This document shows, one piece after another, positions 1 to 7,276 of a DNA stretch of 7,276 nucleotides (position 1 is its first letter; each line of letters begins with the position of its first letter). Source of the stretch: a virus. Its lineage: Duplodnaviria; Heunggongvirae; Uroviricota; Caudoviricetes. The position numbers and the translations under genes were made by a program. A model generated the notes under the pieces. That model worked only from the letters and a program-made list of their open reading frames with translations. It made no database searches and was not told the DNA's origin. The stretch lies in IMG/VR virus record IMGVR_UViG_2547132272_000004, positions 1-7,276 of that record, one strand, 5' to 3'.

Positions 1-10
1 AAAATTCACT

Positions 11-66
11 TTAAAAAGGGCGGACATCAGCCAGCAATGAAACTGATGCCGCCAAAAGGTAATCAA
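11..66 (-). ncRNA. dicF: DicF-like small RNA (3' end is an intrinsic terminator); 5' boundary approximate
   Basis: Minus strand reads ...GATTACCTTTTGGCGGCATCAGTTTCATTGCTGGCTGATGTCCGCCCTTTTTAAAG. The GGCGG-ATCAG ... CCGCCC-UUUUU part matches my recollection of the E. coli Qin DicF 3' half. It lies downstream of the dicA-side leftward operon, as in Qin. The 5' part differs from the K-12 sequence as I remember it. Confidence 0.4.
13..53 (-). terminator. Rho-independent terminator of the leftward early operon
   Basis: On the minus strand, stem GGCGGCATCAG / CTGATG(T)CCGCC (forward 19..30 pairs with 43..53, one bulged base), 12-nt loop, followed by a U5 run (forward A-run 13..17). Confidence 0.65.
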
Positions 67-393
67 CATGGGTTGTTGCAGCGGGGTTGTCACTCAGGCG
101 TATGGTCAACCTGACAACCCGGTGTTATCTCGAGGAAAAGATAGCCTCGCCATACTTACCGCCGCGCCATTTCGCGGATTGCCACAACCGGAAGCGCACG
201 GTCGAAGATGCCGGTGGCACGCAACAGAGGGAGAAATAACTTCGCCGTGCGCTTTCGCGTTATGCCCTGACTTTTCAGGGATATATCCTTTCAGTAAACT
301 GTCAGTGCCGGATTCTTATCCGTGTCCGGCGCACGACAACACGCTGTCACGTGTGGTCTCCATTCTCAACCAGTAACCTCAATGGAGGATAAA

Positions 394-636
394 ATGCCAA
401 CAAAACTATGCCCAGCCTGTAATTCTTCGTCTGATTTCTCAGAGAAGAATGGTTATTATATTTTTGATTGCCCGAAACACGGTGTATTCCATATATCAAA
501 ACTTGATGGGATATTTGTGAAACCAAGTCAGTATCAGGCTGACAAGTTAAATAAAATTCTCAATGCCAAAAGAGCGCCAGGCTATACGGGACCTATAGAG
601 GTTTTACCGCGTCCTCGTCTTGTGGAACTGGATTAA
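394..636 (+). CDS. hypothetical small zinc-ribbon-like protein (80 aa), antisense to the leftward operon
   Basis: ATG at 394 with GGAGG at 384..388 (5-nt spacer). CxxC (C6,C9) ... CxxH (C26,H29) pattern. Region visibly AT-rich. The 3' end overlaps the convergent 186-aa gene by 44 bp. An in-frame ATG at 382 has no SD. Confidence 0.5.
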   Translation: MPTKLCPACNSSSDFSEKNGYYIFDCPKHGVFHISKLDGIFVKPSQYQADKLNKILNAKRAPGYTGPIEVLPRPRLVELD

Positions 637-1153
637 ACCAGTGCTCCTGAATCGCTCGTATTTTTACCCTCGGATGATTGCCGGGGGTGATTATTAATTC
701 TGGCGGACATGGTTCTCCATTATGACAAATTGCGCTATAAGTGAAATCAGCCAGAGCAGTGCCGGTCATTATTATTCCGAACTTATCAAGCAGCGAGAGC
801 AAATCACGCAAACAGGAGTTATCAGTTTTTTCGTTATAAAATGAATCCCCTGATGCAGAGAGCATTTCACCTCGCTCTGCGATGCGTTTGACCATTTTCC
901 AGAATTCTTTTTTTGAATACTTTTCCTCGACATAAAAACCCATCGCCGAGGCAATCCGCTTTGCAGCTTCTTCAGTATCCTGGTTGTTTGTTACCGAAAC
1001 AGAGTACAATCCGATAAACGCATCGCGCACATTACGAGCCATATTATCAGTGTCTTTTTTCGTTACCGATTCCAATGCAAGTTCGTTCAGGTGTTGACGG
1101 AGTGTCTGTGCTGCAATCTCCTGGATTGATAGTGGTAAATCTTTAAATTCCAT
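593..1153 (-). CDS. hypothetical protein (186 aa), unknown function, in the early-left operon downstream of the ydfA/ydfB-like genes
   Basis: Long clean ORF. ATG at 1153..1151 with GGGG 6 nt upstream, 11 nt after the stop of the preceding small gene. Protein-like composition. No family recognised from the sequence. Confidence 0.7.
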   Translation of the reverse strand: MEFKDLPLSIQEIAAQTLRQHLNELALESVTKKDTDNMARNVRDAFIGLYSVSVTNNQDTEEAAKRIASAMGFYVEEKYSKKEFWKMVKRIAERGEMLSASGDSFYNEKTDNSCLRDLLSLLDKFGIIMTGTALADFTYSAICHNGEPCPPELIITPGNHPRVKIRAIQEHWFNPVPQDEDAVKPL

Positions 1154-1164
1154 CTTTAACCCCG

Positions 1165-1293
1165 TTAGCCGTTAGATTTTGCCGAACTGGAAAGCGCCTG
1201 TTTAAACTCACTGAAGCTGAGAGCTTCTTCGCCTTCGGCAAGGCCTTCGAAGTATTCTTCGTAAGCCTTTTCCATGATTGTGTCGAAATCCAT
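1165..1293 (-). CDS. small acidic protein (42 aa), YdfB-like by position and size
   Basis: MDFDTIMEKAYEEYFEGLAEGEEALSFSEFKQALSSSAKSNG. ATG 1293..1291 preceded by AGGTGA. Starts 1 nt after the stop of the upstream small gene. Same length and position as ydfB in Qin. An alternative in-frame ATG at 1335 would give 57 aa. Confidence 0.5.
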   Translation of the reverse strand: MDFDTIMEKAYEEYFEGLAEGEEALSFSEFKQALSSSAKSNG

Positions 1294-1294
1294 A

Positions 1295-1450
1295 TCACTC
1301 ACCTGAGTTTCTTTCCAGCCAGCGACGGGCACCATTTTCGGTTTTAAACGTTTTGCTTTTGGTATACGTCATCGCGGTGAACGTACCGTCCTGGTTGGGG
1401 AACACGCCACATACCAGAGATTCGCTGTTGCCAAGATCGATAGTATCCAT
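1295..1450 (-). CDS. small protein (51 aa), YdfA-like by position and size
   Basis: MDTIDLGNSESLVCGVFPNQDGTFTAMTYTKSKTFKTENGARRWLERNSGE. ATG 1450..1448 with GAGGT 4 nt upstream. First gene downstream of the leftward promoter. The ORF-track version extends to 1543, but that extension covers the promoter. Confidence 0.5.
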   Translation of the reverse strand: MDTIDLGNSESLVCGVFPNQDGTFTAMTYTKSKTFKTENGARRWLERNSGE

Positions 1451-1519
1451 GCTGACCTCATTTCCCCTTAACGCCGGGGTAGCGGAACTGTTTGCTGAGA
1501 ACACCGTGCGGTGTCTTGA

Positions 1520-1580
1520 TGGATGGTAATTTAGTTTTCTCATGAAAATTGGTCAAGTGTTTTTGATGAGAAAACTCAAT
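1520..1580 (-). promoter_or_regulatory. leftward early promoter (sigma70-like) with flanking operator inverted repeat
   Basis: On the minus strand: -35 TTGACC (forward 1551..1556), 17-bp spacer, -10 TAAATT (forward 1528..1533). An 11-bp inverted repeat, AGTTTTCTCAT (1533..1543) and ATGAGAAAACT (1566..1576), brackets the -35. The GAGAAAACT core recurs in the dicA/dicC intergenic palindrome. Confidence 0.5.
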
Positions 1581-1643
1581 ATTTAATGCAAAATAAAGCC
1601 AATACATTGAAATGTAAGGCTTTAAAATTAGTGAAGGGGGGGG

Positions 1644-2051
1644 TTATTGATGTTTGTTACGTTTGCGAGCTTCTAGTAGCTCGGTGAATAGGCGATTAAA
1701 ATTCTCAACGCGGGCACGGAGTTCGCTGATTTGTGCTTGCTGCTCTGATTTTGGAAGTGCGCGATACAATCGCAACATCTCCAACTCATCTTCCGATAAG
1801 TCTAAGGCGCTGTTGAGTGCAACTGGTGGATCTGGTGTTTTATCCTCGTCACCAAACAGTATCCAAGTTGGTGAACATTGCAATACCTCAGCCAGGCGAT
1901 GCAAATTTTGCCCGCGCGGGGCTGTATGGTCGCTTTCCCATAGTGAAATTGATGAGCCAGATACGCCAGCAGCTTTGCTTAAATCGTTTTGACTTAAACC
2001 AACCTGTTTGCGTCTTTCTCTAATTCGTTGGCCTAAAGTTTTCTCGTTCAT
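1644..2051 (-). CDS. dicA: DicA-like prophage repressor (XRE-family HTH, 135 aa, no peptidase domain)
   Basis: Translation MNEKTLGQRIRERRK...LQCSPTWILFGDEDK...RARVENFNRLFTELLEARKRNKHQ matches E. coli Qin DicA as I recall it, including LQCSPTWILFGDEDK and the C-terminal RARV.NFN.LF.ELL.AR motif. An upstream in-frame ATG at 2102 would add 17 aa but lies in the operator region. Confidence 0.85.
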   Translation of the reverse strand: MNEKTLGQRIRERRKQVGLSQNDLSKAAGVSGSSISLWESDHTAPRGQNLHRLAEVLQCSPTWILFGDEDKTPDPPVALNSALDLSEDELEMLRLYRALPKSEQQAQISELRARVENFNRLFTELLEARKRNKHQ

Positions 2052-2128
2052 ATTTAGATATCTTAATAACCCTTGACTTGAGATTCCTTGAGTGATTACC
2101 ATTGAGAAAACTCAACTTTGGAGGGGTG
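2052..2128. promoter_or_regulatory. divergent promoter/operator region between the DicA-like and DicC-like genes
   Basis: 77-bp intergenic region. Perfect 14-bp palindrome TTGAGAAAACTCAA at 2102..2115. Direct CTTGAG repeats at about 2078 and 2087. Plus-strand -35-like TTGACT at 2073..2078. 8-bp palindrome AGATATCT at 2056..2063. Exact -10 elements not confidently placed. Confidence 0.55.
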
Positions 2129-2356
2129 ATGTTTAAATCAGACGTAATTAATTTTTATGGGACGAAAGCCAAAGTAGCGAAAGCTGCTGGTGTTGATCCA
2201 TCTGCTGTTTCTCAATGGGGAGAACTGGTTCCTGAAGGTCGCGCGATGCGCCTGCAAGAGGCATCTGGCGGGGAACTTCAGTACGATCCCAAAGTTTATG
2301 ACGAATATCGTAAGGCAAAGCGTGCGGGGCGGTTGAACAATGAAAATCACCCCTGA
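2129..2356 (+). CDS. dicC: DicC/YdaS-like Cro-type HTH regulator (75 aa)
   Basis: ATG 2129 with GGAGG at 2120..2124. FYGTKAKVAKAAGVDPSAVSQWGELVPEGRAMRLQEASGG is the Cro/YdaS/DicC-type HTH signature. Divergent from the DicA-like gene. Confidence 0.75.
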   Translation: MFKSDVINFYGTKAKVAKAAGVDPSAVSQWGELVPEGRAMRLQEASGGELQYDPKVYDEYRKAKRAGRLNNENHP

Positions 2357-2891
2357 ACAGGTTTGTGAGGCTCTGGATGCCTGGGTATGCCGACCAGGAA
2401 TGACACAGGAGCAGGCGACGATATTAATCACAGAAGCCTTCTGGGCCCTGAAAGAACGCCCGAACATCGATGTTCAACGCGTCACGTTTGATGATGGCGC
2501 GGTTGATCAACGGGCGCTGGGCGTTAACCGGGTGAAGATATTCGAACGCTGGAAAGCTATCGACACCAGGGATAAGCGTGAAAAATTCACGGCGCTGATT
2601 CCGGCAATTATGGAGGCTATCCGGATCAGCGATTTCAGGTTGTATTGTGAAATTACTGACGGAAAAAGCATTACGTACATGATCGCCGGGTTAAACAAAG
2701 AATATGGCGATGTGGTGGAGTCCGGGCTGCTTTTTGCGGATCCAGCTGTTGTGGAACGTGAGACTGACGAGCTTATAGAAAAAGCTATTGCTTTCAAGCA
2801 CGCGTATCGTCAGCAATACCAATATTACTTTGCAGATAAACAAATATCTGTCTGGGGTTCGTATGAGTATCGATGCACTACGATGGGCTAA
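2340..2891 (+). CDS. CII-position protein, possibly YdaT-like (183 aa)
   Basis: ATG 2340 overlaps the DicC-like stop by 17 bp, and its 3' end overlaps the next gene (translational coupling). Position matches the RacR-YdaS-YdaT arrangement. The family name is assigned from position and length, not from a confirmed motif. Confidence 0.6.
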   Translation: MKITPEQVCEALDAWVCRPGMTQEQATILITEAFWALKERPNIDVQRVTFDDGAVDQRALGVNRVKIFERWKAIDTRDKREKFTALIPAIMEAIRISDFRLYCEITDGKSITYMIAGLNKEYGDVVESGLLFADPAVVERETDELIEKAIAFKHAYRQQYQYYFADKQISVWGSYEYRCTTMG

Positions 2892-3903
2892 AAAGGTGAA
2901 AACCGGCAGTTCATCCAGTAAGTCAGTATTGACCTGGCTTGCTGATATGTGCGGTGCCGATTTGTGTGCATACCCGTCTGTATCAGCCCTGGCAGAAGTA
3001 ACGGAACTGAACAAAAAGACTGTGCAGGACAGCTTACGACACCTGATGGAGATTGGGTTAATTGTTGATACCGGTGAGAGAAAAGGCAGAACAAAGCAAA
3101 TTGTGGTGTACCGACTTATCGGTGTAGAAGAAAGTGTTGCCGAGCCTGAATACACCCAAAAACGGGAGTCTTTAAAGGTGGGTAAAATTGGTGCTGTTAA
3201 TAAAAACAGTACCGAAAACGGTTATGTTTCAGCACAAAACAGACCCAAAAACGGAACTCTTAACTGCATGGAAAATAACCAAAGACACCCAAATTTTCCA
3301 TTAAAGACACCCAAAAACGGATCACGGAACCCAAAGGAACCCAAAGATCTAAACCCCACACATAACGCACGCGAGAGTGCTCCGACCAGTGAGCAGGATG
3401 TTTTGTCGTTACAGGCAACGCCCCCTGTATTCCTGGATGGCCTGAGCGAACCCATCGGAAAATTTCCGATGACCGATAGCTGGCATCCGTCGCGGGATTT
3501 TCGGCGACGGGCTGCGTTGTGGGGGATGGCTTTGCCGGAACCAGAATTTACACCTGCTGAACTTGCCGCCTTCCGGGACTACTGGGCAGCGGAGGGGAAA
3601 GTTTTCACGCAGGTTCAGTGGGAGCAGAAATTCGCCCGTCACGTAAATCACGTCAGGGCGCAGGCTAAACCAGTCAGCAAGGGGGTAAACCATGCAGCAG
3701 CACCAGGTGGCACCGCATCACGGGCAGTTCAGGAAATTCGGGCAGCACGTGAGCGGTGGGAGCGTGAAAACGGATTTATCAACGACGGAAACTGCCTGGA
3801 AGCTGTGGGAACTCATGGGGGAGGTTTATTCGAACCGCTGGACCCAGAAGAACGGGGCCGCACCTTCGAAGCTCTGGATTGCACAGATTGGCGCGATGAC
3901 TGA
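2863..3903 (+). CDS. replication initiator, lambda O-like organisation (N-terminal winged-HTH, iteron-encoding linker, C-terminal domain)
   Basis: ATG 2863 (MSIDALRWAKK...). The N-terminal 90 aa look like a wHTH DNA-binding domain. The central low-complexity stretch is encoded by iteron-like DNA repeats. A P-like gene follows. Confidence 0.7.
   Translation: MSIDALRWAKKVKTGSSSSKSVLTWLADMCGADLCAYPSVSALAEVTELNKKTVQDSLRHLMEIGLIVDTGERKGRTKQIVVYRLIGVEESVAEPEYTQKRESLKVGKIGAVNKNSTENGYVSAQNRPKNGTLNCMENNQRHPNFPLKTPKNGSRNPKEPKDLNPTHNARESAPTSEQDVLSLQATPPVFLDGLSEPIGKFPMTDSWHPSRDFRRRAALWGMALPEPEFTPAELAAFRDYWAAEGKVFTQVQWEQKFARHVNHVRAQAKPVSKGVNHAAAPGGTASRAVQEIRAARERWERENGFINDGNCLEAVGTHGGGLFEPLDPEERGRTFEALDCTDWRDD
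3152..3347. repeat. iteron-like direct repeats (putative prophage origin) inside the initiator gene
   Basis: Perfect 12-mer ACCCAAAAACGG at 3154..3165, 3243..3254 and 3309..3320. Degenerate copies at 3211..3221 (ACCGAAAACGG), 3288..3294, 3329..3337 and 3339..3347. AAAGACACCCAAA occurs at 3281..3293 and 3303..3315. Confidence 0.55.
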
Positions 3904-4357
3904 GCAGCAAATCCGGCAGGTCTGCCGCCAGTGCATGGACCGTTGCAGGGCAGGTGAAACATGGCCTCCGGACCTGGCTGAGTTTGTGGCGCTGATTTCG
4001 GAAAGCGGGGCCAATCCATTTGGTCTGACGGTGGATGCTGTGATGGAGGAGTACCGACGCTGGCGCAATGAGTCCTGGCGATACGACGGAAGCGATAAAT
4101 ATCCGTGGCCTCAGCCTGTGCTGTATCACATTTGCCTCGAGATGCGTTCAAAGGGGATTGAGCGCCAGATGACCGAAGGTGAGTTAAAACGACTTGCAGA
4201 ACGGCAACTGGCGAAATGGGCAAAGCATGTTGGTGACGGCTTCAGCGTTCCGCCCGTACGGCGGCAACTGGCAGCACCAAAACGCCCGTCGGGGCCAACA
4301 CCAATTGAGTTGCTGAAACAGGAGTATGAACGCCGGAAAGCGGCTGGTTTTGTATGA
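3692..4357 (+). CDS. lambda P-like replication protein (helicase loader); start uncertain
   Basis: The C-terminal half (..WPPDLAEFVAL..KYPWPQP..) resembles lambda P as I recall it. ATG 3692 has GGGGG 6 nt upstream but would overlap the O-like gene by 212 bp in another frame. Alternative starts are ATG 3815 and ATG 3896, the latter in an ATGACTGA coupling arrangement. Confidence 0.6.
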   Translation: MQQHQVAPHHGQFRKFGQHVSGGSVKTDLSTTETAWKLWELMGEVYSNRWTQKNGAAPSKLWIAQIGAMTEQQIRQVCRQCMDRCRAGETWPPDLAEFVALISESGANPFGLTVDAVMEEYRRWRNESWRYDGSDKYPWPQPVLYHICLEMRSKGIERQMTEGELKRLAERQLAKWAKHVGDGFSVPPVRRQLAAPKRPSGPTPIELLKQEYERRKAAGFV

Positions 4358-4387
4358 ATTGTGAAGGTGATTTTTTCAGGAGGATTT

Positions 4388-4615
4388 ATGGCGAAACCTT
4401 TTTCTCTCGAACAGCGGGAAGAGCTGAAGGCACGAATTATCGGATTGGTACGCAAAAATGGACGCATGACGATGTCACAGCTGGAGAGAGCGACGGGAGC
4501 AGGCTGGCATTCGGTTCGACGCTGCCTTGTGGATGTGCTGGCTTGTGGCGATTTATACATGTCCGGTAAATACGGTGTTTTTTGCATCAGAGCAGGCGTA
4601 TCGCGTATGGCGTAA
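4388..4615 (+). CDS. hypothetical small protein (75 aa), possible winged-helix DNA-binding fold
   Basis: ATG 4388 with AGGAGG at 4378..4383. The segment MTMSQLERATGAGWHSVRRCLVDVL is HTH-like. Contains the T6 run at 4578..4583. Confidence 0.6.
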   Translation: MAKPFSLEQREELKARIIGLVRKNGRMTMSQLERATGAGWHSVRRCLVDVLACGDLYMSGKYGVFCIRAGVSRMA

Positions 4616-4784
4616 GACACCGGAGAAAAGAACCGACCTGACACTGATTCGAAAGTTACCAGACGGAGAAATACGCCGCTACGACAGGCGTCAGAACATA
4701 ATCTGTAGCGAGTGCCGGAAGAGCGAAGCTATGCAGCGCGTACTGGCGTTTTATCAGGGTAATTTTCAGGAGGTGGTGCGGTGA
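4533..4784 (+). CDS. hypothetical ORF overlapping the preceding gene, possibly its frameshifted continuation
   Basis: No start codon or SD lies downstream of the 4615 stop in this frame. The 3' end is coupled to the next gene (GTGA at 4781..4784). A one-base change in the T6 run at 4578..4583 would fuse it in frame to the 4388 ORF. Confidence 0.35.
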   Translation: MCWLVAIYTCPVNTVFFASEQAYRVWRKTPEKRTDLTLIRKLPDGEIRRYDRRQNIICSECRKSEAMQRVLAFYQGNFQEVVR

Positions 4785-5047
4785 GTGAATCAAAATGCCA
4801 GGTTAAGGGCAACAAGATAGAACCATGTGCAGCACTGGCAAAGTCCCTTGAGCATGATGCTGAATACACGATGCGAAAAGGTCTGCTGATATACAAAGTC
4901 TGGAATGAGAATTTAACTCGCGCCCCTGATTTGGTGATGTTGCGTTCCGGTGAATTTTCTAAATCACCTATTCGAGTCTCATTTTGCCCGTTCTGTGGTG
5001 AAAGTCTGAAAACATGGAAAAAGGAGACAACCAGTGAGCAAGATTGA
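4781..5047 (+). CDS. hypothetical small protein (88 aa) with C-terminal CPFC motif
   Basis: GTG start at 4781 with AGGAGG at 4768..4773 (7-nt spacer). Cysteines at C6, C16 and C69-x2-C72. Confidence 0.6.
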   Translation: MSESKCQVKGNKIEPCAALAKSLEHDAEYTMRKGLLIYKVWNENLTRAPDLVMLRSGEFSKSPIRVSFCPFCGESLKTWKKETTSEQD

Positions 5048-5933
5048 CTATCAGGCACTGCGTGAGGCGGCGGAACGTGCAATTCCAGCAATGGAACGCC
5101 TGTTAATGTTGCCAGCTGATGATGATTTGTTAAGTGAACAGGAACTTAAAGATTACGGTGTGGATATTGATGCGCTCAACGCCTTCAAATTTCTGGCCGG
5201 ACCAGAAACCGTGCTGGCACTACTGGATGAACGGGAAAGAAACCAGCAATACATAAAACGCCGAGACCAGGAAAACGAAATGATGGTTGATGCCATGCAC
5301 GCGGCTATTGCCCTGACAAGTGTTGGAATAGACCTGGACGATTACGACGAATGCGTCTTGCGACTACATGAATGGGGCGCTTTACCTGACTATTGCATTG
5401 CGCTTTATGTGGATTTCGTTCACGGAATTGTATCGAAAAACAAACTTCTGGATTTTGGTTATATCAACGGTGCACCGGTATGGACGTTGCGTGATGAGCT
5501 GGAAGCCGCAGAGAACAACCTTATTGATAGTGAGTGCCATGTTGCTGAACTGGAAGAAGCGCTACGCGATAAGCAGGCGTTACTTGAAGCATCAGAGAAG
5601 CGCATAGCAGAACTGGAAACAAAAGCGAACCAGCAAACCAGAATAAGCGATAAGGGGCTGACAAAGCTGATTGCCGATGCTGACAAAATGCTGGGTATGC
5701 GTTCGCCGGTTATAGACAGCGAGTGGTGGACGCTTTTACGGCAGTTCCTGATTGAACTTCAGGATCGCCGCAGAAACAGCATTTCTGAATCTGGAATCCG
5801 TGCTGAAACCCTGAATGATTTAATCCGACATATTGACAGAAACCTGGATATTGACGCGATGAAATCGCCGTTTGAACTGTCATCTGAAATTGTGGATTAC
5901 GTTAATAGGCAACTGCACAAGGAGAATTCGTAA
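5034..5933 (+). CDS. hypothetical coiled-coil protein (299 aa); N-terminus reminiscent of Ead/Ea22-like prophage proteins
   Basis: GTG start at 5034 with AAGGAGA at 5021..5027. The N-terminal M.IDYQALREAAERA resembles Ead/Ea22-like N-termini from memory only. Central heptad-like acidic region (ELEAAENNLIDSECHVAELEEALRDKQALLEASEKRIAELE). Confidence 0.65.
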   Translation: MSKIDYQALREAAERAIPAMERLLMLPADDDLLSEQELKDYGVDIDALNAFKFLAGPETVLALLDERERNQQYIKRRDQENEMMVDAMHAAIALTSVGIDLDDYDECVLRLHEWGALPDYCIALYVDFVHGIVSKNKLLDFGYINGAPVWTLRDELEAAENNLIDSECHVAELEEALRDKQALLEASEKRIAELETKANQQTRISDKGLTKLIADADKMLGMRSPVIDSEWWTLLRQFLIELQDRRRNSISESGIRAETLNDLIRHIDRNLDIDAMKSPFELSSEIVDYVNRQLHKENS

Positions 5934-6109
5934 TGCAGGTGGCATTTGTTGGCTTGTTACCGCATCCGATCCGCCTTTGGGCGGATATGTCACTCATAAA
6001 AACGCATTTTTTTACTACTGATGGCGGCATTCCGGCACCAAAGCGCCGCCATACCGGTATTGCAGCGGCACGACGAGCAGCAAAGAGACGCAGGAGAGCA
6101 AAACGATGA
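5933..6109 (+). CDS. hypothetical small protein (58 aa), hydrophobic N-terminus and Arg/Lys-rich tail
   Basis: ATG 5933 overlaps the upstream stop (TAATG), with AAGGAGAA 6 nt upstream. Below the ORF-track size cutoff. Two GC-rich hairpins lie within it, so coding status is uncertain. Confidence 0.35.
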   Translation: MQVAFVGLLPHPIRLWADMSLIKTHFFTTDGGIPAPKRRHTGIAAARRAAKRRRRAKR

Positions 6110-6294
6110 AAAACCGTAAAGCAAAGATTCTGTTAGCTCGCAGAAACGGTGTTGGGGTCTGGCGATGGTTGAGGATTAGTAACAGACGAGTGAGGTTGAC
6201 GGGGTGTTGCGGGGTGATGGGTCACAGCTGTTGCAAAAAGCCCAGCGCGGCGCAAAACCGCTGGAAAAACCACTTGCGCACTAAAGGAGAGTGA
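6106..6294 (+). CDS. hypothetical small basic protein (62 aa), Arg- and Cys-rich
   Basis: ATG 6106 overlaps the previous stop (ATGA), with AGGAG 9 nt upstream. Stop is 1 nt before the HNH gene start. Unusual composition. Confidence 0.35.
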   Translation: MKNRKAKILLARRNGVGVWRWLRISNRRVRLTGCCGVMGHSCCKKPSAAQNRWKNHLRTKGE

Positions 6295-6295
6295 T

Positions 6296-6661
6296 ATGGC
6301 ACTGACGAAAAAACAACGTGCAGAACTGCGCATGAAGTTCGGCGGTCGCTGCGCTTATTGCGGCTGCGAACTTGGCGAAAAGTGGCATGCAGACCATGTA
6401 AAACCGGTCATTCGTTTTGATGGAAATATGCTTCACCAGGAACGTGACGATATATCCAACATGGTTCCGGCATGCCACCCATGCAATCTGCACAAGCATT
6501 GCAGTAGCCTGGAAGATTATCGGCGAATTATCAGTGATGGTCGTCGTGAATTCCTTGCGTCCGGGAAAGGCAAAGCGCTGGTTCGTATGGGATTGGTTGA
6601 AATGAAACCTGACCCGGTTGTGTTCTGGTTTGAAAAATATCAAGAAGGGGCTACAGCATGA
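6296..6661 (+). CDS. HNH endonuclease (121 aa)
   Basis: AAGGAGA at 6283..6289 before ATG 6296. Canonical HNH/zinc-finger pattern: CAYCGC ... HADHVKP ... [14 protein letters not shown]. Confidence 0.85.
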
Positions 6662-7002
6662 CGACTTTTACCAGAGAGCAGTTAATAGCTCACGCAGAGG
6701 AGACTATTGAAGCACAGAGACTGTGCATACCGGGCACAATCGACCATGACATCATCCGCACATATAAGATGGATATTGCTGTTCTGGAAATCGCACTGGT
6801 ATCGCTGGCAGCAGAGCCAGCCGGTAAATTGCATGAATACAAACCAGTGGGATATCAGCGTCTGGTTGATGAGTTAATCATGCTGGTAAAGCAGTTAACC
6901 TGGCAACTGAGGAAAGCGAAGCCAGACTGCAAATTACCGGATAAGGCGATGAGTTATCTGGAGCGGAACGGACTGATAAGCGTGGAGGATATTTTACGAT
7001 GA
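6658..7002 (+). CDS. hypothetical protein (114 aa)
   Basis: ATG 6658 overlaps the HNH stop (ATGA), consistent with translational coupling. Protein-like composition. No family recognised. Confidence 0.6.
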
Positions 7003-7235
7003 CTGGCCTGAAGCATTCACAACGGTAGGAATTGCGATGGCAGTGGCGCTGGTGGTGTATTCGATTTGCCGCTGGGGATAAAAACGGTTTGCGGGAAAAA
7101 GGGAGTTAAGTAAAATTGCTGCGGGTGCTTGAGGCTATCTGTCTCAGGCATGAACACCAAAAGGCAGATAGAGAAAAGCCCCAGTTAACATTACGCGTCC
7201 TGCAAGACGCTTAACATTAATCTGAGGCCCAATCT

Positions 7236-7276
7236 ATGTCTCACAAATGTAGGTTAGCCTCTTACGTGCCGAAAGG
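7236..7276 (+). CDS. possible 5' end of a CDS running off the window (MSHKCRLASYVPK...)
   Basis: ATG 7236 with GAGG at 7224..7227. Open to the window end. Only 13 codons are visible. Confidence 0.25.
   Translation, partial: MSHKCRLASYVPK

Follow-up and report, generated by a model that had tools for sequence, protein, structure and literature searches.

DicF is a textbook prophage small RNA (sRNA), usually treated as one sequence that blocks ftsZ. The family has long been known, and multiple dicF copies as well as dicF-like prophage sequences have been reported. This study concerns a DicF-like element at the left edge of a 7,276-nucleotide (nt) stretch of DNA from a virus of the Caudoviricetes (IMG/VR record IMGVR_UViG_2547132272_000004, positions 1 to 7,276), called the window throughout. 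The element is no oddity: it represents a single combination within a family that is modular and recombines, and that also includes the sRNA KilS.

In Escherichia coli K-12, RNase E cuts the 53-nt DicF (RF00039; b1574, in the Qin prophage) out of a 190-nt precursor that is generated by RNase III (PMC10448788). The 5' end of this RNA pairs with xylR and pykA and its 3' region with the ribosome-binding site of ftsZ, as shown by compensatory mutations (PMC5069750). KilS (b4833), an sRNA of the K-12 Rac prophage encoded upstream of kilR, was found through the ligation and sequencing of interacting RNAs (RIL-seq) with Hfq, confirmed by northern blot and assigned the partner yncL; it is annotated with 98 nt and may have its own promoter, and the paper makes no mention of DicF (PMC8175672, Bar et al. 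2021). That the members of a prophage sRNA family can differ in their seeds is a current concept, and DicF has no occurrence in the full text of the preprint that describes such families (Zhu, Shabalina & Storz 2026 preprint). The PasA/PasC and PasD/STnc100 families of that preprint are likewise horizontally spread Escherichia prophage sRNAs with a shared scaffold, partial variants and multiple copies per genome, but they are different RNAs at different positions, and none matches the window sequence. Two separately assorting modules, a 5' tail and a hairpin loop, are a feature of the dicF-type locus that the Pas families do not share.

The preliminary description of the window placed a DicF-like sRNA at positions 11-66 and pointed out that the dicB side of the locus was missing. 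Such an element is present at this place, and its dicB side is indeed cut off by the window edge. The strand, which had been left unstated, is the minus strand, and the segment quoted as 'UGAUUACCUUUU' is the reverse complement of plus-strand positions 55-66. The element extends from about 68 to 13, and the minus strand from window position 68 to 11 reads, 5' to 3', UGUUGAUUACCUUUU-GGCGGCAUCAGUUUCAUUGCUGGCUGAUGUCCGCC-C-UUUUU-AA. The following parts can be distinguished.

13..68, minus strand: predicted DicF-family sRNA, from the Rfam DicF alignment, the fold and the alignment to K-12 dicF; its length of ~56 nt presumes a 5' end as in the Rfam alignment.
54..68, minus strand: 5' module UGUUGAUUACCUUUU, 15 nt, unpaired in both the minimum free energy (MFE) and the centroid structure; candidate seed.
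19..53, minus strand: terminator hairpin GGCGGCAUCAG-UUUCAUUGCUGG-CUGAUG-U-CCGCC, 35 nt, from the fold and a terminator scan.
31..42, minus strand: loop region UUUCAUUGCUGG, which takes the place of the K-12 anti-Shine-Dalgarno loop UUUUACUCCGUGA; candidate second seed.
13..17, minus strand: U-tract of the intrinsic terminator, from the sequence and the terminator scan; likely 3' end and predicted Hfq-binding tail.
69..194, minus strand: upstream precursor region including a conserved hairpin at 120..83, from the alignment to K-12; cleavage would take place here.

The element folds into a single GC-based hairpin of 13 pairs with one bulged U and an 8-nt apical loop, preceded by the 15-nt unpaired tail and followed by the U-tract. 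The MFE structure is identical to the centroid structure and has an energy of -21 kcal/mol, compared with -10.4 +/- 2.4 kcal/mol for dinucleotide shuffles (z -4.46), and none of the 200 shuffles folds as well. The hairpin was also picked up by the simple terminator scan. The window element therefore has the DicF architecture of an unpaired 5' region, one GC-based Rho-independent terminator hairpin and a U-tract. All eight alleles that were folded likewise consist of an unpaired 5' tail and a terminator hairpin.

A covariance-model search, which the preliminary description had proposed as a check, gave a significant match, although one below the gathering score of the family. The DicF model RF00039 aligns end to end with minus-strand positions 68..18 and scores 34.1 bits, with E 7.4e-6 when the 400 nt of window 1-400 are searched under an E-value threshold; the gathering score is 48 bits. 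At gathering thresholds no DicF match is found in the window, so that the element does not enter the curated family by score, and sok (7123-7276) is the only Rfam match there. The DicF score drops with distance from the K-12 allele, from 76.7 bits for K-12 itself through 60.6 for a Salmonella allele and 42.8 for a KilS-type allele (43-38 for KilS-type and other alleles) to the 34.1 of the window. The same search returned no match for the allele of locus L193 or for alleles with the G-loop hairpin described below.

The surroundings of the element are well conserved. Window 69..194 on the minus strand aligns as a homologue of the 5' part of the 190-nt K-12 precursor. Identity to K-12 Qin is 81% over window 330..82, the hairpin at 120..83 is nearly identical, and the region holding the K-12 cleavage sites is conserved in the alignment. 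On the downstream side the spacer CCGCCCUUUUUAAAGUGAAUUUU is identical to K-12 at all 23 positions (window 23..1). Within the element, 44 of 59 aligned positions are identical to K-12 DicF. The kept parts are the stem base GGCGG/CCGCC, AUCAG, AUCAGUUU and the U-tract, together with the downstream AAAGUGAAUUUU common to both, and K-12 Qin dicF (L002 2883-2935) likewise has the arrangement UUUGGCGG-N-AUCAGUUU. The two also agree in an unpaired 5' tail of ~15 nt and in their place in an early-left operon, after ydfA/ydfB and just before dicB. That the window element is a homologue of dicF is supported by a significant if sub-threshold Rfam match, by the shared fold and operon position and by the conservation of the flanks.

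The divergence from K-12 DicF is concentrated in two blocks, the junction with the 5' module and the loop with the 3' arm. The difference in the 5' region had been noticed in the preliminary description: K-12 has UUUCUGGUGACGUUU where the window has UGUUGAUUACCUUUU, a module ~10 nt shorter. Over window 81..54, which comprises the 5' module and the junction just upstream, identity is 47% with a 10-nt gap. The terminator half had been described as conserved, and this holds for the stem base, AUCAGUUU, the U-tract and AAAGUGAAUUUU, but not for the loop and 3' arm, where only 1 of 14 aligned positions is identical; in the window hairpin the loop and the upper 3' arm are allele-specific. K-12 DicF forms two short helices, whereas the window has a continuous 13-bp stem with one bulge, and the window hairpin is ~5 kcal/mol stronger (-21 versus -15.9 kcal/mol). 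The two K-12 recognition elements, the 5' seed GGUGACGUUU for xylR and pykA and the loop/3' arm ACUCCGUGACUGCUCUGCC for ftsZ and manX, are thereby both replaced.

Target pairing was assessed as ensemble binding from the RNAcofold partition function for target regions -80..+60, with 60 dinucleotide-shuffled targets as the null. Plain RNAduplex on long targets gave meaningless long looped duplexes, and ensemble binding and site-restricted hybrids were used instead. K-12 DicF binds xylR (-14.8 kcal/mol), manX (-14.9) and pykA (-12.8) above the null, with 0-1 of 60 shuffles reaching the observed value, and the intragenic manX site in its 3' region was recovered. The window allele yields -3.9, -6.5 and -4.9 kcal/mol with these three targets, and with ftsZ -0.1 kcal/mol against -9.6 for K-12. 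On none of the four mRNAs does it show above-background pairing; its values lie within or below the shuffled nulls, and on ftsZ it binds more weakly than 60 of 60 shuffles. When hybrids are confined to the validated sites, the window falls 9-12 kcal/mol short of K-12: -18.9 versus -27.9 kcal/mol on ftsZ, -23.0 versus -35.1 on manX and -11.7 versus -20.3 on xylR, where the K-12 seed GGUGACGUUU forms 13 contiguous pairs. The CUCCG block that pairs with the Shine-Dalgarno sequence CGGAG of ftsZ is missing from the window allele. In silico, then, neither the antisense to the ftsZ ribosome-binding site nor the xylR/pykA 5' seed of DicF is found in it. Since the 5' segment that pairs with xylR and pykA is replaced, the shifted target set suggested in the preliminary description is a reasonable inference, with which the pairing calculations agree. 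Its implied retention of ftsZ targeting is not supported, as the loop and 3' arm are replaced too.

Several candidate targets of the window allele were examined and set aside. The translation start region of ompF, considered for a resemblance to the 5' module, gave -5.3 kcal/mol, rank 4 of 40 genes there, and was rejected. The loop can form 12 bp, one of them a G-U pair, with CCAGCAAUGGAA at window 5085-5096 on the plus strand; this site lies inside an ead/Ea22-like coding sequence, occurs in 2 of 29 loci with the loop and is most likely due to chance. Nothing stands out elsewhere in the prophage of strain ETEC1732 (L001). Among the division genes of the dcw cluster, ftsA was best for the window allele (-10.1 kcal/mol), but the whole terminator must unfold (38 intermolecular pairs), and the value was treated as a cofold artefact. 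With yncL, the partner of KilS, the window allele does not pair to any notable extent (-3.9 kcal/mol).

The locus was further compared across prophages by pattern scans of IMG/VR and of species-representative genomes, in which elements were taken upstream of a conserved T-run/AAAGUGAAUUU anchor. Conserved anchors bound the element (GACAACCCCGC ... AAAGUGAAUUUU, plus Rac-type flanks), and UUUGGCGG and CCGCCCUUUUU are candidate recombination breakpoints. The 254 elements extracted fall into about 50 combinations, and 5' modules and hairpin-loop modules assort independently across the IMG/VR prophages. The window 5' module (GUUGAUUACCUUUU) is present in 83 IMG/VR contigs on two hairpin types, namely the window hairpin (26 contigs) and an unrelated G-loop hairpin, GGCGGGUAUCCG...GAUACCCGCC (58 contigs). 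The window hairpin, conversely, is present in 71 contigs and joined to at least seven different 5' modules. Between the two hairpin types, GGCGG-CAUC../..GAUG-CCGCC in the window and GGCGG-GUAU../..AUAC-CCGCC in the G-loop form, both sides of the stem change and pairing is kept (C-G/A-U/U-A/C-G versus G-C/U-A/A-U/U-A). Other alleles have U-G, C-G, A-U or U-A as their sixth stem pair. These changes mean that the helix is under selection. The best whole-window match among complete genomes (L187, NZ_LR882057.1; 95% identity, 72% coverage) carries a K-12-type dicF instead (locus ~2516-2570); the allele of this otherwise similar prophage backbone has been exchanged.

KilS belongs to the same set of alleles. 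Its gene lies at L322 2406-2503 on the minus strand, and its 3' 63 nt read GCUGUGUGUAGUCCUGGCGGCAUCAGUUUUUUUCUUGAAGUUCGGCUGAUGUCCGCCCUUUUU, followed by AAAGUGAAUUUUGUGAUG; this 'class B' allele has a stem identical to that of the window. The stem arms GGCGGCAUCAG...CUGAUGUCCGCC, the U-tract and the downstream AAAGUGAAUUUUGUGAUG are the same in both, KilS, from the same family of locus, lies immediately upstream of a division inhibitor (kilR), where loci with the window allele have dicB (18) or kil (5), and in 12 IMG/VR contigs the window hairpin is joined to a KilS-type 5' module. The 5' module (GCUGUGUGUAGUC) and loop (UUUUUUUCUUGAAGUUCGG) of KilS are, in contrast, unrelated to those of the window, and over the whole RNA 48 of 67 aligned columns are identical, so that the window allele is not KilS itself. 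The variable 5' module of KilS (UGUGUGUAGU) has 10-bp complementarity to yncL at -36..-27, in the 5' untranslated region, with a chance probability near 0.02 by a rough estimate that allows at most one G-U pair. Judged by their sequences, KilS of Rac and DicF of Qin are alleles of one locus type. Two members of this type thus function as Hfq-dependent sRNAs, or resemble such sRNAs, and differ in their partners, and in both the 5' module is a demonstrated or plausible seed.

At least 33 complete genomes of E. coli from varied hosts match the 90 nt around the element at 100% identity. Coverage of the query reaches at least 80% in 214 of 5,426 genomes (~4%), and part of it, one module or a flank, is common to 1,611 genomes (~30%). 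Carriers include SE11 (NC_011415.1, near 1,781,388-1,781,477), UMNF18 and enterotoxigenic (ETEC) and Shiga toxin-producing (STEC) isolates, from pigs, goats, chickens, mice and humans. In the pattern scans the element was found only in Escherichia, Shigella, Salmonella, Citrobacter and two metagenome-assembled genomes labelled Veillonella and Collinsella, which carry the K-12-length form and probably reflect contamination. RefSeq annotation of noncoding RNA is absent at window-type loci but uninformative, the K-12-type dicF of L187 being unannotated too.

Upstream of the element on the same strand, the window contains the first half of an early-left operon, and a further small gene opposes it.

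1644..2102, minus strand: DicA/CI-like helix-turn-helix repressor gene (Pfam HTH_3, E 1.3e-16), the expected repressor of the operon.
1528..1556, minus strand: promoter-like site TTGACC-17-TAAATT, from a consensus scan only, where a dicBp-type early-left promoter is expected.
1295..1543, minus strand: ydfA-like gene (DUF1391; Pfam PF07151, E 3.5e-27), first gene of the operon, start codon uncertain.
593-1153, minus strand: open reading frame (ORF) of 186 amino acids (aa) with no Pfam family, in place of ydfC.
394-603, plus strand: small ORF of 69 aa with CxxC...CPKH, possibly a zinc ribbon, with no Pfam match.

The arrangement of the repressor and the ydfA-type gene is that of K-12 dicA-ydfA, and relatives annotate ydfA/ydfB at the matching position. 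Promoter-like sites in the window are no more numerous than in shuffles, which makes the site at 1528..1556 weak evidence. The 186-aa ORF is intact in L187 (WP_191536306.1) and a truncated pseudogene in the ETEC1732 annotation. Beyond the window edge, the ETEC1732 locus, with 99.8% identity over window 1-400, has dicB 190 nt downstream of the element, followed by ydfD-like, exonuclease, xis and int genes, and adjoins ompW. In the 23 loci with the exact window allele the next gene is dicB in 18 and kil in 5, and a division inhibitor lies downstream of the element in most loci. The element thus occupies the DicF position in a repressor-controlled early-left operon of a Qin-like prophage, the upstream half of which is in the window. 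The opposite strand carries cro-like, YdaT, DnaT-like O, P and ead genes and, at the far end, sok/hokD; the replication and immunity genes are intact. The sok antitoxin RNA (RF01794, 101.2 bits; 7123-7276, plus strand) is cut by the right end of the window, and in L187 hokD follows directly.

The small ORF at 394-603, a hypothetical protein in ETEC1732 (WP_033813301.1), is oriented opposite to the early-left operon and located between the sRNA precursor and the 186-aa ORF at 593-1153. The two ORFs overlap by 11 nt at their 3' ends, and a terminator-like site is present at 664-690 on the plus strand. The small ORF may be a moron whose transcription would run into that of the dicF precursor. A second plus-strand ORF, 68-376 (102 aa), is antisense to the precursor and was judged probably spurious, since K-12 has no ATG at the matching position, the peptide looks non-coding and the nucleotide conservation is explained by the RNA precursor; the Shine-Dalgarno-like AAGG before its ATG is the complement of the sRNA 5' module.

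Other structured RNAs are found just outside the window in relatives. STnc100-like sequence lies directly downstream of their dicF-type elements: in every relative checked, sub-threshold STnc100 matches (RF02076, 32-41 bits, gathering 47) are located between the dicF-type terminator and dicB/kil (L002 2933-3142, L192 1587-1741 and L193 1574-1772; also L035, L061, L098 and L145), and the dicB/kil leader may be homologous to the STnc100/PasD sRNA family. In some relatives isrK and C4 antisense RNA matches above threshold follow within ~400 nt of the dicF-type element (L035 5482-5670, L061 4732-4920, L098 1171-1359), so that structured RNAs cluster in the phage early region.

With a modest lean in its favour, we read window 68..13 on the minus strand as a processed, Hfq-type sRNA allele of the DicF/KilS family, probably with a different regulon. 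In a Qin/Rac-like lambdoid prophage, the element would close the early-left operon's first transcription unit, in the proposed order DicA-like repressor, promoter, ydfA-type gene, 186-aa ORF and sRNA, with dicB or kil just past the window edge. As in K-12 DicF, a polycistronic transcript would either stop at the GC-rich hairpin and U-tract or continue into the gene for the division inhibitor. The sRNA would arise when the early-left transcript ends at the element's own hairpin and is processed by RNase III/E. It would be ~45-56 nt long, consist of a 5' tail that is U-rich and single-stranded and of the terminator hairpin, depend on Hfq and act in trans. As both recognition elements are replaced, the mRNAs with which the allele base-pairs would most likely be a different set, recognised by its own 5' module, its loop or both, and its terminator would still set the amount of transcription that reaches dicB/kil.

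A number of points weigh against this reading. The sequence, fold, homology, synteny and modular structure of the allele and its lost complementarity in silico are shown here, and its transcription, processing, Hfq dependence, action in trans and targets are predicted from them. An RNase E cut at the K-12-aligned position would leave a 5' tail of ~5 nt, and with the 5' seed lost the loop would be the sole possible seed. The pairing method is a filter rather than proof: it is low-powered for ftsZ, where even K-12 DicF on its validated target is not separable from the null (9 of 60 shuffles), and its specificity is limited, K-12 DicF scoring on two unrelated genes among 80 K-12 start regions (ilvH -19.3, ftsA -18.3 kcal/mol) as on validated targets, although these scores need an implausible full unfolding of the terminator. 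Some complementarity to ftsZ is left in the window allele, namely CAGUUU to AAACU(A) and CCGCC to GGCG. Scans of ~125 kilobases of K-12 sequence and of the prophage sequence turned up no convincing alternative target. Finally, conservation within the allele speaks for the reading, since across 19 distinct backbones the sRNA has only 2 variable sites and the sequence more than 100 nt upstream varies heavily, but the search pattern had itself fixed part of the sRNA in this comparison, and the low within-allele diversity could reflect recent spread instead of selection.

The main rival is a role mainly in cis, which we consider unlikely, though well worth keeping in view. Here the element would be a leaky terminator and processing site that gates early-left transcription into dicB/kil, the hairpin RNA a by-product, and the variable segments carried along by phage mosaic recombination. 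The parts kept in every allele are indeed those that a terminator needs, the GC stem base and the U-tract, together with the flanks; the neighbouring division-inhibitor gene fits such a role, the loops of the G-loop alleles are variable and U-rich, and recombination alone could create the mosaic from the conserved blocks that flank each module. In K-12, terminated (ydfABC-dicF) and read-through (to dicB-ydfD) transcripts both exist (PMC10448788). Against a role mainly in cis stand two alleles of the locus that are documented as trans-acting or Hfq-bound sRNAs with distinct partners; nor do the modules show continuous drift, being discrete and internally conserved across backbones. In addition, a U-rich stretch before the hairpin and a U-tail are the usual Hfq-binding layout. 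Cis and trans roles can also coexist.

Two further explanations are less likely than the cis role. That the element is functionally K-12 DicF, still repressing ftsZ and perhaps manX through retained complementarity while its differences are neutral, is improbable. It shares the locus and the downstream partner dicB with K-12, its kept AUCAGUUU and CCGCC blocks account for the -18.9 kcal/mol hybrid over ftsZ -29..+3, and the method cannot clearly detect even the validated K-12 pairing. Yet the CUCCG block and the 13-pair xylR seed are gone, the ftsZ hybrid is 9 kcal/mol weaker while the hairpin to be opened is ~5 kcal/mol stronger, and ensemble binding to ftsZ falls below all 60 shuffles. Slightly more improbable still is a silent relic: the prophage would be defective and its copy decaying, with transcription, or processing into a stable RNA, lost. 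The operon would normally be repressed by the DicA-like repressor, the opposed ORF 394-603 with its terminator-like site could interfere, and the upstream gene is a pseudogene in the ETEC1732 annotation. Against decay stand an intact hairpin that is stronger than that of K-12, the conserved precursor region, the identity over 90 nt in complete genomes, the presence in 214 of 5,426 genomes and in IMG/VR prophages, and the intact replication and immunity genes nearby.

Extending the sRNA reading, we tentatively propose, as a possibility that we hold with less than even confidence, that the dicF/kilS locus is an sRNA scaffold with two cassettes. Its processing signals and terminator base would be fixed, its 5' and loop seeds exchangeable and reshuffled by phage recombination, and each prophage would deliver its own RNA targeting a host regulon beside a division inhibitor; the window allele would be functional, with a regulon that lacks ftsZ, xylR, pykA and manX. 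The allele itself, the two-module combinatorial locus, the relationship between DicF and KilS and the predicted loss of all four K-12 targets appear to be new. If such alleles are expressed, many E. coli strains carry DicF-family RNAs that are missed by standard Rfam thresholds and that probably act on other genes. Counts of dicF copies per strain would then hide functional diversity, and the natural module swaps would be a ready-made system for the evolution of sRNA seeds by recombination.

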